A stretch of DNA of 64,000 nt from Gammaproteobacteria bacterium. Its GTDB lineage: Bacteria; Pseudomonadota; Gammaproteobacteria; Eutrophobiales; Eutrophobiaceae. A model generated the notes under the pieces. That model was not told the DNA's origin, ran no database searches, and worked only from the letters and a program-made list of their open reading frames with translations. Location of the stretch: positions 2,144,001 through 2,208,000 of the forward strand of contig CBDCDS010000003.1 of NCBI GenBank assembly GCA_965215365.1, read 5' to 3'. The stretch's first letter is position 1. Every line of letters starts with the position of its first letter. Shown here piece by piece: positions 5,354 through 60,359 of this stretch. A program made the position numbers and the translations under genes.

Positions 5354-6646
5354 TTAATGAGCATTAACAAGGCTTTGCCCCTGGTTTTTTATCATATACT
5401 CAAACTCGTGCCGGTAGTGTTTCATGAAGCTTTGCACCGGCCAGGCGGCGGCATCGCCCAGCGCACAGATGGTGCGCCCCTCTATCTTATTGGCAACATC
5501 CACCAGCTTGTCCAGGTCGGCCATAGTACCCTGGCCGTCGATGATACGGGACAGCATGCGGTAGAGCCAACCGGTGCCTTCCCGACATGGCGTGCATTGG
5601 CCGCAGGATTCGGCAAAATAGAAACGGGAGATGCGTTGCAGCATTTTAACCATGCAGGTGCTCTCGTCCATCACCACCACCGCGCCGGAACCAATGGAAG
5701 AGCCGGCGGCGCGCAGGGAATCATAATCCATATTGGTTTCCAGCATGATTTCGCCCGGCACCACCGGCACTGAGGAACCGCCGGGAATCACCGCTTTCAA
5801 TTTGCGCCCGTTCCATACGCCGCCGGCCAGCGCCAGCAACTCACGGAAGGGCATACCCAGCGGCACCTCGAAGTTGCCTGGCGCGACCACGTGACCACTG
5901 ACGGAAAAGCACTTGGCGCCGCCGCTGTTTGCCACACCCAGGTCGGCGAACCATTGTGCTCCTTTCAGGATGATAGCTGGCGCCGAGCAGAAACTTTCGG
6001 TGTTGTTGATGGTGGTGGGCCGGCCGTACAAACCGTACTGGGCCGGGAACGGCGGTTTGAAGCGAGGTTTGCCCGGTTTGCCTTCCAATGATTCCAATAG
6101 CGCGGTTTCTTCCCCACAAATATAGGCGCCGGCGCCCAGCACTGCATGAACATCGACATTTACGCCGGAACCAAGAATGTCCCGGCCCAGGTAGCCGGCA
6201 GCGTAAGCCTCCTGCACGGCGCCGGCGAAGCGCTGGTAGGGCTCATCCATAAACTCACCGCGGATATAATTATAGGCTACCGCCGCGCCCATCGCATAGC
6301 AGGCGATGGCCAGCCCTTCCACCAGCGCGTGCGGGTTAAAACGCAGAATGTCCCGGTCCTTGCAGGTGCCGGGTTCGCTTTCGTCGGAATTACACACCAC
6401 GTACTTCGGGTTGGGTGCGTCCGGGTTCATAAAACTCCACTTCAAGCCGGTGGGAAAACCGGCGCCGCCGCGTCCGCGCAGGCCAGAACCCTTGATCTGT
6501 TCGGTGACCTCACGGGGTGGAATTTTTTCCTCAAGAATCTTCTTCCAGGCTGCGTAGCCGTCCACCCGGTAATAATTTTCCAGCGTCCACGGTTGCTCGT
6601 ATTTGAGCGTGGCGTAACAGACCGAATTGATGCCGTTGGCGCTCAT
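5354..6646 (-). CDS. nuoF: NADH-quinone oxidoreductase subunit F
   Basis: GLRGRGGAGFPTGLKWSF, GAGAYICGEETALLESLEG, ESCGQCTPCREG. Confidence 0.97.
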   Translation of the reverse strand: MSANGINSVCYATLKYEQPWTLENYYRVDGYAAWKKILEEKIPPREVTEQIKGSGLRGRGGAGFPTGLKWSFMNPDAPNPKYVVCNSDESEPGTCKDRDILRFNPHALVEGLAIACYAMGAAVAYNYIRGEFMDEPYQRFAGAVQEAYAAGYLGRDILGSGVNVDVHAVLGAGAYICGEETALLESLEGKPGKPRFKPPFPAQYGLYGRPTTINNTESFCSAPAIILKGAQWFADLGVANSGGAKCFSVSGHVVAPGNFEVPLGMPFRELLALAGGVWNGRKLKAVIPGGSSVPVVPGEIMLETNMDYDSLRAAGSSIGSGAVVVMDESTCMVKMLQRISRFYFAESCGQCTPCREGTGWLYRMLSRIIDGQGTMADLDKLVDVANKIEGRTICALGDAAAWPVQSFMKHYRHEFEYMIKNQGQSLVNAH

Positions 6647-19925: not shown

Positions 19926-19957
19926 TTATCCGCAGATAACGCAGATGTACGCAGATT
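19926..19957 (+). repeat. CGCAGAT-family dispersed repeat, single arm
   Basis: TTATCCGCAGATAACGCAGATGTACGCAGATT. Confidence 0.85.
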
Positions 19958-19997
19958 AACATGGATCAGGCTCTTAAATGCAACTCCTGTCCGTCTG

Positions 19998-40857: not shown

Positions 40858-40910
40858 TTATCCGCAGCTTAGCGCAGAAAAAAAGACAATCTGCGTCACA
40901 CCTGCCGATA
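40858..40910. repeat. Degenerate CGCAGAT-family inverted pair between gor and modA
   Basis: TTATCCGCAGCTTAGCGCAGA...ATCTGCGTCACACCTGCCGATA. Confidence 0.65.
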
Positions 40911-42337: not shown

Positions 42338-43483
42338 ATGACAGACACTGACGCCATCAGTGTGCGCCTGCGACAACCGGGGCCGATCCCGCTGGATGTG
42401 TCGCTGTCCTGCAACAGCGGCGAGATACTGGTCATTCTGGGCCCGTCCGGCAGCGGCAAGACTACCCTGCTCAGATCGATCAGCGGCTTGTACACGCCCG
42501 CGTCCGGCGCCATTCGTTGTCACGGGGAACAATGGCTGGATAGCGCCAACGGCATCAACCTGCCGGTGCAGCGCCGACGTATTGGCATGGTGTTTCAGCA
42601 GTACGCGCTGTTCCCCCACCTCACCGCCCTGCAGAATATCATGCTGGCCCTGCATAACGGTGCGCGCCGACACCGGCGCGACACCGCGCAAAACCTGTTG
42701 CGCGCCATGCACATGGAAGGTCTGGAAGAACGCTACCCGCAGCAGTTGTCGGGGGGGCAACAGCAGCGAGTGGCCCTGGCTCGAGCGCTGGCGCGCGAGC
42801 CCAGTGCACTGTTGCTGGACGAACCTTTCTCAGCCGTGGACCAGCAAACGCGCAGGAAACTGGTGCGGGAACTGGTGAGCCTGAAGCAACACTTCAAACT
42901 GCCCATTATCCACGTCACACATGACCTGAACGAGGCGCGCCGCATCGCCGACCGGCTGTGCATCATCCACCATGGCAAAACCCTGCAAAGCGCTGCGCCC
43001 GAACAGGTGATGAACCATCCCGACAGCGCCGCCATTGCCGCGCTCATCGGCCATTACAATATCTTTCGCGCCCGGGTGGCAGGGCACGATCAGCAGGCGC
43101 AGACTACCCGCATCGAATGGGGCAGCCTGACCCTGAACGCGCGCTATCGCCCGGAATTTGCCCCCGGCGTCGCGGCAGACTGGGTCATCCCCGCAGACAG
43201 TATCATCCTGCATCGTCGCGACCGTCCGTCCCAGGGGGAGCGCGAAAACCCGGTGCCGGGCCGCATTGAAGAACTGCTGCCCCTGGGCGAGCAGGCCGCG
43301 CTCACCATGAAGACCGCACAGGGCGAGTCACTCTACCTGAACATCCCCACCCACGTCGCCCGTCGCAACCAACTGAGCAAGGGCGGCGACCTCAGTGTCT
43401 CGCTGCTGGCGGAGCGGATACATTTGATGAAAATATCTAAGGAATTGTCCGCAGATGACACAGATGAACGCAGATTAAAATAA
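42338..43483 (+). CDS. modC: Molybdate ABC transporter ATP-binding protein
   Basis: GPSGSGKT, LSGGQQQRVALARAL, LLLDEPF, TOBE-like tail; last residues are repeat-encoded. Confidence 0.92.
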   Translation: MTDTDAISVRLRQPGPIPLDVSLSCNSGEILVILGPSGSGKTTLLRSISGLYTPASGAIRCHGEQWLDSANGINLPVQRRRIGMVFQQYALFPHLTALQNIMLALHNGARRHRRDTAQNLLRAMHMEGLEERYPQQLSGGQQQRVALARALAREPSALLLDEPFSAVDQQTRRKLVRELVSLKQHFKLPIIHVTHDLNEARRIADRLCIIHHGKTLQSAAPEQVMNHPDSAAIAALIGHYNIFRARVAGHDQQAQTTRIEWGSLTLNARYRPEFAPGVAADWVIPADSIILHRRDRPSQGERENPVPGRIEELLPLGEQAALTMKTAQGESLYLNIPTHVARRNQLSKGGDLSVSLLAERIHLMKISKELSADDTDERRLK

Positions 43484-43523
43484 GGAATTATCCGCAGATG
43501 ACACAGATGAACACAGATAATGA
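43438..43523 (+). repeat. Two tandem 43-bp CGCAGAT-family units
   Basis: TAAGGAATTGTCCGCAGATGACACAGATGAACGCAGATTAAAA / TAAGGAATTATCCGCAGATGACACAGATGAACACAGATAATGA. Confidence 0.9.
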
Positions 43524-43728
43524 CAAGAGGGATCAGGAAACTTATGAAATCATCGGGGCTGCTAAAGCCTTACAAAGAACATCGGGTCATGAGGAATCTC
43601 AGCTGATCAACTATCTGAAGGCCGCTGGGATGAACCGTGGGTTACTCATCAATTTTGGCGCCAGACAACTACAATACAAGAGACTCGTTTTTAATCTGCG
43701 TTCATCTGCGTCATCTGCGGACAAATAA
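43498..43728 (+). pseudogene. GxxExxY-family (PDDEXK_3) protein with a large in-frame internal deletion
   Basis: N-terminal RDQETYEIIGAA joined directly to C-terminal KA...EESQLINYLKAAGMNRGLLINFGARQLQYKRLV; the GxxExxY motif and D...ELK core are missing. Confidence 0.8.
43689..43724 (-). repeat. CGCAGAT-family inverted copy closing the GxxExxY cassette
   Basis: Reverse complement is 35/36 identical to 43445-43480. Confidence 0.92.
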
Positions 43729-43729
43729 G

Positions 43730-45346
43730 TCAACTGTTAATAACAGGCGCCGCCGCCAGTAACGCCTGGGTGTACTCGTGTCGAGGTGCTGCTAAAACCT
43801 GACTGGTTTCGCCCTGTTCCACAATTTTACCCTGGCGCATCACGGCCACTTCGTGGGCGAAGTTGCTGATCAGGTTGACGTTGTGGGTGATAAACAGGCA
43901 GGCCAGCTTCAATTGTTGTTGTAATTCGGTCAGCAATGCCATGATGCGCGCCTGTACCGTGACATCAAGGGCACTGGTGGGTTCGTCGCAGACCAGCAGT
44001 TGCGGCCGCACTGCCAGCGCCCTGGCAATGCAGATGCGTTGCCGTTGCCCGCCGGAAAACTCGTGCGGGTAACGGTACTTGTGGCCCGGTTCCAGGCCAA
44101 CCTGTTCCAGCAGGCGGTCGATTGACGCCTGACGCTGCCCGGCAGTCTGTGCCGTACCCAGGGTGAGCATACCTTCCTCAATAATGTCCTTTACCTTGAA
44201 CTGCGGGTCCATGGAGGAAAATGGGTCCTGGAATACGACCTGCATGTACGTCCGGCGGCGGCGCAGCTGTTGCGGGCTGAGCCCGGACAGGCTCTCACCG
44301 GCCAGACAGACTGTGCCGGCCGCCGGTTGCAGCAGTTGCAGAATGCCTTTGCCAAGCGTGGTCTTGCCGGAGCCGGACTCGCCTACCAGTGCCAGGGTAC
44401 GGCCGCGCGCCAGCGTCAGCGACACACCCTCTACTGCATTGAAGTAGCTGGCCGGGCGCCCAAACCAGCCTGGTTTAATGGGGAAACGGATGTGCAGGTT
44501 GTTGACTTGCAGCAGGGGGCTGTGGTGTTTGTTGCCAGCCTCACTGACTTCAGGTTTGCGCGCGCTAACCCCGGACCCCATAGCCCTAGCTACTGCCAGC
44601 AGTTGTTGGGAATAGGAATGCTGCGGCTGACGAAAAAACTCGTTTGCAGGGCCGGTTTCCACCAGCCGGCCGCGGCGCATGACGGCGACGCGACCCGCCA
44701 CCTGGGCGGCCACAGCCAGATCGTGGGTGATAAACAGCATGGCCATGCCGGTCTCGCGCTGTAGCTTGTGCAGCAGCGCCAGAATGCGCGCCTGGGTGGT
44801 GACATCCAGTGCCGTAGTGGGTTCATCGGCGATAAGCAGCTCAGGTTCTCCGGCCAGGGCCGTGGCCAGCATGACCCGCTGTTTCATGCCGCCGGAGTAC
44901 TGGTGCGGGTAGTCATGCAGGCGGCGGGCGGGGTCCGGTAGCTCCACGGCCGCCAGTAATTCGACCACCCGCTGCCGTAGCGCCCGGCCACGCAACCCGC
45001 GCCGGCGCAGCGCCTCGCCCACCTGTACGCCTACCGTCAGCGCCGGATTCAGCGAGCTGTGCGGTTCCTGAAAGATCATGGCAAGCTGCCGCCCGCGCAG
45101 GGCGCGCAGGCGCCGTGTAGACAGGGTGGCAAGGTCGCGGTCATGCAGCCGGATGCTGCCGCTGACTGCGGCTGAGCCGGGCAACAGCCTGAGCAGGCTC
45201 AGCGCAGTCACGGACTTGCCACTGCCCGATTCACCTAGCAACGCCAAAGTCTCCCCGGCCTGAATTTGGAAAGACACGCCGGCAACGGCAGGCGCGTCGC
45301 TGCCAAAGCGCACCGTCAGGGAGTCAATATTGAGTAACTCAGCCAT
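43730..45346 (-). CDS. Peptide/nickel-type ABC transporter fused double ATP-binding protein
   Basis: Two NBDs: GESGSGKS...[12 protein letters not shown] and GESGSGKT...[12 protein letters not shown]. Confidence 0.93.
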
Positions 45347-45364
45347 AGCTCGCATATCTCATTG

Positions 45365-55529: not shown

Positions 55530-55552
55530 TTTATAAACTCTGGCGTGTTAAG

Positions 55553-55618
55553 TCCGCAGATGACGCAGATGAACGCAGTAAATTTGCTTTATCTGCGTTC
55601 ATCTGCGTCATCTGCGGA
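55553..55618. repeat. CGCAGAT-family perfect hairpin (26-bp stem, 14-nt loop)
   Basis: TCCGCAGATGACGCAGATGAACGCAG (55553-55578) / CTGCGTTCATCTGCGTCATCTGCGGA (55593-55618). Confidence 0.93.
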
Positions 55619-56056
55619 TAAATATCCGGTAGTATTCCGCTCGACCCAGCGCGCGCCGCCACTGACCACTTCCTTTTTCCAGAACGGCGCCTTGTGCTTG
55701 AGGTCCTCAATGATGAAGCGGGTGGCGTCGATGGCATCGCCACGGTGTGCAGACCAGGTGGCAATAAGCACAATGTCTTCGCCGACTTCAATGTCCCCGG
55801 TGCGGTGCAGCAGCAGGATGTCGTGTACTGCCCACTGTTCGACCGCCTGTGCGCAGATCTCCTGTAAGTGCTTCTCGGTCATGCCAGGATAATGCTCCAG
55901 GGTCATGGCGCCGACCTCCTCACCGTCGTTGAAGTCGCGCATCGTGCCGATGAAAATGCTGGTGGCGCCGGATTTACCAGGATTCCCGGTCGCCGTGCGC
56001 TGGTTCATTACTTCAGCCGCGGCGTCAAAGGGCGCTGGTCTCAGCTCTACCCGCAT
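55589..56056 (-). CDS. moaE: Molybdopterin synthase catalytic subunit
   Basis: FIGTMRDFN, LEHYPGMTE, SAHR, LKHKAPFWKKE. Confidence 0.95.
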   Translation of the reverse strand: MRVELRPAPFDAAAEVMNQRTATGNPGKSGATSIFIGTMRDFNDGEEVGAMTLEHYPGMTEKHLQEICAQAVEQWAVHDILLLHRTGDIEVGEDIVLIATWSAHRGDAIDATRFIIEDLKHKAPFWKKEVVSGGARWVERNTTGYLSADDADERR

Positions 56057-60090: not shown

Positions 60091-60121
60091 TTATCCGCAG
60101 ATAACGCAGATTAGCGCAGAT
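60091..60121 (+). repeat. CGCAGAT-family dispersed repeat, single arm
   Basis: TTATCCGCAGATAACGCAGATTAGCGCAGAT. Confidence 0.85.
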
Positions 60122-60359
60122 GATGGGAACATAAAAGTCACATTGCTTTCAGAGCGTTGGGAGATTGGGAATTGCCATTGGCTGATATGAACCACTCATC
60201 ATCGAATGGTTTAATATGGCGCCTTGTCCTGCTATAATCTTTTTCTTATCGGTCTTATAAATTATTGTTTTCCATGATCTATTTTTTCTAATGTAAATAT
60301 CATGGGAACTGGCATGATTTTCGCCCTGTTTATTTGAGCAAACAAACGCAGAGGTGTAG

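Follow-up and report, generated by a model that had tools for sequence, protein, structure and literature searches.

A decayed GxxExxY nuclease gene between inverted word-array arms belongs to a widespread cassette with REPIN/RAYT-like features

The 64,000-nucleotide window analysed here comes from a Gammaproteobacteria bacterium genome (G000; 2.73 Mb in three contigs; other G-numbers are genomes compared with it, and C1 and C3 are contigs). Within it, an open reading frame (ORF) of the GxxExxY family lies between inverted arms built from a repeated 7-nt word. Comparison across genomes indicates that a cassette of this kind, a nuclease gene plus word arrays, is real and widespread, with each nuclease type carrying its own word, and that the window copy is dead, was inherited vertically and decayed where it lies. 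The complete cassette measures about 480 bp and consists of a nuclease gene without a detected promoter between inverted three-word arms. In the explanation that we favour, to which we give an even chance, it would behave much like the systems formed by repetitive extragenic palindromic (REP) sequences, their hairpin-forming doublets (REPINs) and REP-associated tyrosine transposases (RAYTs).

The two arms (window 43445-43480 and 43689-43724) are 36 nt each, 35/36 complementary (97%) and separated by 208 nt. Read from the outside in, the arm sequence is TTGTCC-GCAGAT-GA-CACAGAT-GAA-CGCAGAT, which contains three CRCAGAT words at spacings of 9 and 10 nt and begins with an outer TT(G/A)TCC head. 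The left arm is duplicated in tandem as a 43-nt unit (43438-43480 and 43481-43523, 88% identity). Its outer copy consists of a 7-nt leader (TAAGGAA), the three-word arm and TAAAA, and gives an upstream ModC-like ORF its last codons and stop; its inner copy holds the ATG of the enclosed ORF at 43498. The right arm, the reverse complement of the left, ends 5 nt short of the stop codon of a convergent ABC ATPase gene. When the 293-nt unit (43438-43730) was folded as single-stranded DNA, arm paired with arm at -52.9 kcal/mol, compared to -27.9 +/- 3.4 kcal/mol for 200 shuffles, none of which folded equally well (z -7.3). The window contains 29 copies of the heptamer CGCAGAT/ATCTGCG, while 30 first-order Markov simulations gave a mean of 11.9 and a maximum of 20. 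These measurements confirm an earlier note on this DNA, which had described the inverted arms, the second tandem unit and a 9-10-nt periodic CGCAGAT motif.

We determined what remains of the enclosed gene. The ORF (43498-43728, plus strand, 76 aa) scored 41.7 bits with the TIGR04256 model (cut-off 35) and 35.7 bits with PF13366 (cut-off 22), as expected from the earlier note's assignment to the GxxExxY family, although it covers only the last 47-48 profile positions (69-116). G000 contains two PF13366 matches. One is this remnant; the other is an intact gene of 131 codons that lies between atpG and atpD, scores 124.1 bits, follows the orientation of the operon and has inverted arms of its own, each with three CACAGAT words. 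In alignment with this paralog, residues 1-31 of the remnant correspond to 4-33 and residues 18-65 to 84-131; approximately residues 4-26 and 88-131 of the paralog are retained, followed by the arm-encoded tail NLRSSASSADK. Comparison with the intact cassette at the orthologous site of G005 revealed that exactly 192 nt (64 codons) are absent in frame, with the junction at 43563/43564 on the plus strand. The deleted peptide, MAVHNELGHGFLEAVYQEALEREF...PDFICYDSVIIEI, includes the GxxExxY motif (GFLEAVY), the conserved Asp and the Glu of ExK. Since the deletion took the motif, the Asp and the ExK Glu, the window ORF, which lacks both the GxxExxY motif and the D...ExK core that the intact paralog possesses, is a fragment of a GxxExxY family member. 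The loss of the catalytic core by in-frame deletion, proposed in the earlier note, is thus borne out by the alignment.

To follow the element at this site, we compared the spacer between the ModC-like ORF and the ABC ATPase gene in 12 genomes of the genus. G005 carries an intact gene and intact arms in the orientation opposite to that in G000 (gene on the plus strand, flanks matching on the minus strand), and G001 carries a broken gene oriented as in G000. In G015, G016 and G022, the arms surround an unrelated 90-nt interior, which is flipped in G015 and has no copy in G000. The spacers of G009 and G018 retain the first word followed by another repeat, while in G008 and G021 a palindrome, ATCCGCGGAT, is left and now codes for a C-terminus, KIRG*. 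In the closest relative, G006, whose flanks are 91% identical, the spacer is reduced to 12 nt (ATCTGCGGATAA), and in G013 we found no trace of the element in this spacer. Since one spacer holds intact, broken, gene-less or remnant states across the genus, the window copy decayed in place, and the interior has flipped twice independently at this site, which points to inversion between the arms. Between G000 and G005, the coding DNA that the cassette retains is 80.6% identical; as this fits the identity of the flanks (77-81%), the cassette has descended vertically with its site. The earlier note had likened the window copy to a non-autonomous derivative and had looked to this spacer in relatives for an empty site. 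Remnants and an empty spacer were seen, but no new insertion or target duplication. Given that the site is occupied across the genus and that the copy decayed there, it is not a derivative transposed to this site.

Both protein and arms appear to be kept. The 30-nt right arm at the ModC-like site is 90-97% identical among four species, and in the adjoining gene of the same species third codon positions are 49-63% identical and first and second positions 83-92%. Since the arm and the first two codon positions are more alike than third positions, protein and arms are both apparently being maintained. A 10-nt palindromic junction, ATCCGCGGA(T/C), was seen at two sites only, the ModC-like site of G008 and G021 and G006:C1:2038690-2038850. 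It corresponds to the outer five letters of both arms joined, as if the whole hairpin had been excised at one preferred point, with the GC common to both arms forming a 2-nt microhomology. The ATCCGCGGAC/T footprint has a second occurrence at site 1179310 in G006.

To characterize the intact protein, we examined residue conservation in 37 homologs that are 56-85% identical to the intact paralog. D77, E87 and K89 are invariant, as is E37 of GxxExxY, and at least 90% of these sequences retain Q101xxxY105; Q-x-x-x-Y is a motif of the RecB family. For an AlphaFold2 model of the intact protein (pLDDT 89.8), the best match among solved structures was the Cas4 protein SSO0001 (4ic1; E value 1e-4, TMq 0.56), followed by lambda exonuclease, RecE, MGME1 and the nuclease domains of AddAB, with Hjc matching more weakly. 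PADLOC returned a weak Cas4 hit (E value 0.0097), and a sequence search of solved structures gave no match. The modelled fold and the conserved residues indicate that the intact protein is a minimal RecB/Cas4-like PD-(D/E)xK nuclease with the signature of a metal-dependent DNA nuclease. It shares the core fold and the D...ExK...QxxxY signature with Cas4/RecB-family nucleases. Cas4 proteins contain a four-Cys iron-sulfur cluster; since C80 is the single invariant Cys among the 37 homologs, this cluster is not present in the cassette protein, which also differs from Cas4 in its small size (about 125 aa) and in having no CRISPR context. There are at least 8000 homolog candidates for PF13366/TIGR04256, and PF13366 was found in 55 of the 401 Gammaproteobacteria genomes sampled, a count that includes the unpublished G320. 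In the survey PMC3424549, the function of the GxxExxY family is stated as unknown.

We asked how often GxxExxY genes are flanked by inverted repeats. Three sets were scored: a cross-phylum sample of 80 loci from at least 15 phylum-level groups (by record titles), 29 Pfam-ranked Gammaproteobacteria genomes and nine loci of the genus. Lack of length ruled out three of the 80 loci, and a further locus was excluded for a short flank; 105 windows shifted 400 nt outward served as controls (maximum score 13). Flanking inverted repeats scoring above the control maximum were found at 82 of 115 evaluable genes (52/77 cross-phylum, 21/29 in the class sample and 9/9 in the genus). The repeats that the earlier note had expected beside GxxExxY genes of many genomes are thus present far beyond chance.

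The word differs between nuclease types. Within the genus, CRCAGAT cassettes were found in G000, G005, G018 and G001, CATGGAT/CAGGAT cassettes in G001, G007 and G008, and CACAGAG cassettes in G007 and G019; G001 and G007 each hold two types. The class sample added CGCCAAG, CGCAAAG, CATGAAG, CGCAGAA, CGCGAAA, CACGGAA and CGCNAAT, always with about three words per arm. All six words within one element agree, while the 2-3-nt spacers vary; as units were picked by CAGAT, column conservation is partly circular, and only three features are informative: the variable spacers, the TCC terminus and the flanking C. We assigned ten word classes by regular expression and mapped them on a FastTree tree of 81 proteins, where they required 12 changes (the minimum possible is 9), compared to a mean of 23.5 and a minimum of 20 in 200 label shuffles, and protein distance correlated with arm 5-mer distance (Mantel r = 0.70, p = 0.001, n = 81). 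A specific pairing, in which each nuclease subfamily has its own word, is well supported. There are exceptions: the protein of locus L105 is of the CRCAGAT type and has CGCAAAG arms, and related 'GFLEKVY' proteins carry four different words.

Arms also occur away from the gene, as the earlier note had observed. An arm profile search of G000 gave 62 hits, 41 of them with E values of 0.001 or below, at about 25 places; about 40 arms lie beyond the gene-bearing cassettes. The strict triple-word pattern was found at 33 positions, none of them outside the large contig, and read backwards it was absent from all 41 genomes searched. There are 13 inward-facing arm pairs in G000, 11 of which are gene-less, with interiors of 5 to 415 nt; the other places hold solo or tandem arms. 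Since the interiors of the gene-less pairs are unrelated to one another, as well as to the gene, these pairs are not simple deletion products of one master copy. Among the window sites named earlier, two are clear solo three-word arms on the plus strand, at 19926-19959, about 20 nt upstream of a minus-strand gene start, and at 60091-60124, a 34-nt sequence that G006 shares unchanged at its orthologous site and of which G005 has a variant. The site near 55553 is a clear gene-less hairpin (55552-55621; 3+3 words, 10-nt loop) with an orthologous hairpin of fewer words in G005 and G006, and that at 40858-40896, upstream of modA, is a degenerate hairpin; 12879 and 45367 proved to be weak single-word traces. 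Solo arms fit exactly at gene borders and supply stop or start codons. For example, the solo arm at G000:C3:1876483-1876514 gives one gene its last codons and stop and the next its ATG; we take these genes to be leuC and leuD.

Comparison with relatives revealed how these sites change. In the atpG/atpD spacer, G000 has the intact gene, G005 a CGCAGAT element of 174 nt that is only a hairpin, and G006 24 nt with a single CGCAGATTAAC. We compared nine G000 sites. In G006, at least one arm is present at five of them, two are reduced to a one-word remnant and two are empty. Eight of the sites were read in G005, where six hold an element, one holds remnants and one is empty. Between species, a given site can differ in word number, in tandem arms and in its interior. 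These genus comparisons revealed no new insertion and no enzyme-dependent spread, and suggest that the arm population is old, stays at its sites and is not visibly jumping. Whole-arm tandem duplications that include 10-15 additional nt (period 43-52 nt) were seen at 5 of the roughly 25 places (G000:C3:1179422-1179500, 1183167-1183248, 1253683-1253770 and 1793777-1793854, and window 43438-43523), one of which is common to G005 and G006. A second small hairpin repeat, which contains TAGAGGT(T/G)(A/G)CC, is nested in or beside several word-array elements (G000:C3:1208400-1208434, 1658840-1658866, 2039770-2039800 and 2508709-2508760); word-array interiors seem to attract other repeats.

We next set array numbers against the presence of the gene, counting triple arrays of three word types in 23 genomes of the genus and treating each genome and type as one case. 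The median was 45 arrays in the nine cases with an intact cognate gene and 6 in the 60 cases without (Mann-Whitney p 0.00085, overstated by kinship). The richest genomes for two of the types carry the intact cognate gene (CAGGAT, G008, 65 arrays; CAGAG, G019, 181 arrays). Outside the genus, 18 genomes contained 0-2 CAGAT-type arrays each, and within it such hairpin repeats without the gene are present in 18 of the 22 sister genomes. In G010, a plain tandem array of a 9-nt unit, GACCCAGAG, at G010:C1:1361783-1361850 is unrelated to the cassettes and raises the CAGAG count of this genome by 6.

In the REPIN/RAYT-like explanation, the words would be candidate recognition sites of the encoded nuclease, and three sites per arm, mirrored, would resemble transposon ends with several binding sites. 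By analogy with REPINs, the element would be long-lived, site-bound and mostly vertical within the genus, with protein and arms maintained by selection or homogenisation. The interior would turn over by deletion, inversion between the arms and replacement, and the gene-less hairpins would have arisen largely by interior loss in place. We put the chance that the enzyme helps to spread or maintain the arrays at about one in three.

The resemblance to REPIN/RAYT systems (PMC3116915, PMC3337134 and bioRxiv 10.1101/2022.05.22.493013) is fourfold: an enzyme gene is flanked by its own inverted palindromic repeats; dispersed, intergenic, gene-less inverted doublets are much more numerous than the gene; enzyme types are matched by repeat types of their own, with several types in one genome; and persistence is long and largely vertical. 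The differences are also clear. The cassette enzyme is a PF13366 PD-(D/E)xK protein resembling RecB and Cas4, not a HUH Y1 transposase (PF01797); the arms are three 7-nt words at 9-10-nt spacing instead of a single REP palindrome; the gene sits within the hairpin; the same word accompanies the same protein subfamily in at least 15 phylum-level groups; and the dependence of arrays on the gene is here only statistical, as reflected in the medians. The REP/RAYT-like interpretation of the earlier note therefore stands in so far as gene and repeat are specifically paired, but not as regards enzyme-driven spread, of which we saw none.

Several results weigh against this explanation. Of the nine G000 sites, all but one also have an element or a remnant in at least one of G005 and G006, and the remaining site is empty in G006, so there is little sign of recent movement, and comparisons of filled and empty sites revealed no target-site duplication at the ModC-like, atpG/atpD and 2039708 sites. 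Because kin genomes are not independent, the statistics overstate. Word and protein could simply co-diverge as linked DNA; as linked DNA does so anyway, their correlation alone is no proof of recognition. Better arguments for it are that the six words of an element agree although its 2-3-nt spacers differ, and that different words coexist in one host. Among the 60 gene-less cases, 11 hold at least 30 arrays, and in G016, which has the most CAGAT arrays (126), only a fragment of the gene is present. Considered by itself, the CAGAT type shows no significant difference between cases with and without the gene (p = 0.15). The arms of the sole intact gene of G000 consist of CACAGAT words alone, whereas CGCAGAT predominates in the gene-less arrays of this genome. 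The earlier note had held that equal repeat density in genomes lacking the family would speak against its proposal; this is in part what we found, as two closed genomes without a PF13366 match, G020 and G022, contain 56 and 72 CAGAT arrays, while the pooled medians differ in the direction that the note expected. Persistence of arrays without the gene looks like that of REPINs after RAYT loss and equally allows hairpins that are independent of the enzyme.

A model in which the nuclease homes into the hairpins could accommodate many of the same observations, although we consider it unlikely. Free-standing homing endonuclease genes pass through a cycle of gain, decay and loss. In such a model, gene-less hairpins would be the targets, the nuclease would break its cognate hairpin, and repair from a gene-bearing copy would insert the gene, which the inverted arms would allow to land either way round before it later decayed and was lost. 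This would fit the invariable position of the gene between arms, the series of intact, broken, deleted, hairpin and remnant states at one site, the occurrence there of both orientations and differing interiors, and the persistence of hairpins without the gene; moreover, a fold like those of RecB, Cas4 and lambda exonuclease suits end processing. As with homing endonuclease genes, a small nuclease ORF lies in a self-contained insert and is found intact, broken, deleted or lost at one orthologous site; unlike them, the cassette involves no intron or intein and occupies many dispersed sites instead of one. Against homing, the cassette at the ModC-like site diverged in step with its flanks, as expected from vertical descent and inversion in place and not from re-invasion. 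Also, no recent gene gain was seen in the genus comparisons, and homing leaves unexplained why hairpins of the same word are present in so many phylum-level groups.

It is unlikely that the hairpins are REP-like sequences kept or tolerated by the host, for messenger stability, operon punctuation or protein binding, with the nuclease gene as a passenger. The abundance of arrays in those 11 gene-less cases is consistent with this idea, as are the stability of sites across species, the greater conservation of arms than of silent sites, and the exact fit of solo arms between genes to which they give stop or start codons. However, a genome can hold several word types, each tied to its own nuclease subfamily, and this coexistence of different words makes it unlikely that one host factor accounts for them. 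The same word also accompanies the same protein subfamily across phyla, and the words are fixed while the spacers vary, a contrast that is partly circular because units were picked by word.

The cassette gene is probably read through from host operons, since its upstream neighbour is mostly co-directional (75 of 93 loci; both neighbours in 54 of 93, by crude neighbour calls) and no promoter-like site was detected. In the window, we found neither a promoter-like nor a terminator-like site between 43100 and 44000. These findings, together with the location of cassettes inside operons and the strong pairing of the arms, would also suit an element acting at the RNA level like the intervening sequences (IVSs) of 23S rRNA, in which RNase III cuts the double-stranded stem formed by the arms and releases the ORF, so that the insert is harmless inside operons. 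We regard this possibility, which is compatible with any DNA-level model, as improbable: a stem requires complementarity only, neither a repeated word nor a 9-10-nt period, and the protein bears the signature of a metal-dependent DNA nuclease. The IVS of Coxiella burnetii (PMC4990558) resembles the cassette in being a selfish insert (430-480 nt) with a small internal ORF that is tolerated in an essential transcription unit; the cassette differs in lying between protein-coding genes and in having arms of repeated words. The IVS protein family S23p (PF05635) had no match in G000, and the cassette ORF matches PF13366. No Rfam family matched the window at the gathering threshold; at the locus, there was only a chance-level flpD hit (E value 1.4).

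That the cassette is an ordinary miniature transposon moved by a separate transposase, such as a Y1/RAYT or insertion-sequence enzyme, is very improbable in spite of its inverted ends, intergenic copies and gene-less pairs, as the single PF01797 match of G000 has no CRCAGAT word in the surrounding 3231 nt, no target duplication was seen at the filled and empty sites compared, the interiors of gene-less pairs are mutually unrelated, and the arms are tied to GxxExxY genes across phyla. Mu, Tn7 and the IR/DR type of Tc1 transposons have several binding sites at each end, and miniature inverted-repeat transposable elements (MITEs) are gene-less relatives of transposons. The cassette is like these in its inverted ends with repeated sites about one helical turn apart and in its gene-less derivatives, and unlike them in lacking a transposase of the DDE or any other type and in showing neither target duplication nor new insertion at its sites. 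Elsewhere in G000, a 520-codon frame (C3:1056611-1058170) combines a Y1-transposase-like domain (HVH motif) with about eight tandem 16-residue repeats (KASSLPRGQDALDPRE).

A literature search, with subscription journals and supplements outside its scope, found no published description of a cassette of nuclease plus word array. Nor did we find a functional study of GxxExxY/PDDEXK_3, and titles and abstract openings on PDDEXK proteins with inverted-repeat mobile elements contained nothing relevant. We tentatively propose, with more doubt than conviction, that GxxExxY proteins are a very large family of short-word-specific nucleases, every subfamily reading a 7-nt word of its own, and that, with their mirrored triple arrays of these words, they form a REPIN-like self-perpetuating element. 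Such an element would be a so far undescribed class of selfish or persistent DNA, found within essential operons and in no fewer than 15 phylum-level groups. If the protein does read its flanking words, the GxxExxY family would gain a function, gene-less hairpin repeats of this kind would gain an origin, and a set of compact nucleases with differing short specificities would become open to study. It would also mean that a second, unrelated enzyme fold has reached the REP/RAYT way of life.

The arms also matter for annotation, as they rewrite gene ends and extend called ORFs. The ModC-like ABC ATPase ORF (42338-43483, plus strand) adjoins modA; it scores 229 bits with the modC model, below the cut-off of 285, while modA scores 134 bits, above its cut-off of 62.5. 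Its 3' end (window 43420-43483) has been rewritten by the arm, so that the protein ends ...LMKISKELSADDTDERRLK here and ...LMKKIRG in relatives. Many called GxxExxY homologs bear PQITQMNAD heads and NLRESASSADK tails, which are translated arms. The right neighbour, on the minus strand at 43730-45355, is a duplicated ABC ATPase gene of the YejF/dipeptide type.

We also compared contigs from four sequencing runs of mixed samples with G000:C3:2034000-2045999 at 85% likeness. Two of the runs, X5 and X6, contain the intact cassette with 0 and 1 differences. The contigs of X7 and X9 leave the interior of the cassette uncovered, which is no proof of its absence. A 10-nt (one-word) gap at 5811 in X6, X7 and X9, together with a back-joint (5841>5810; 11 intervening letters) seen in X6 and X9, gives a weak hint of variants in word number and arm duplication. 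A separate repeat of about 250 nt within this region (G000:C3:2035116-2035365) is present in many copies in G005 and G006.

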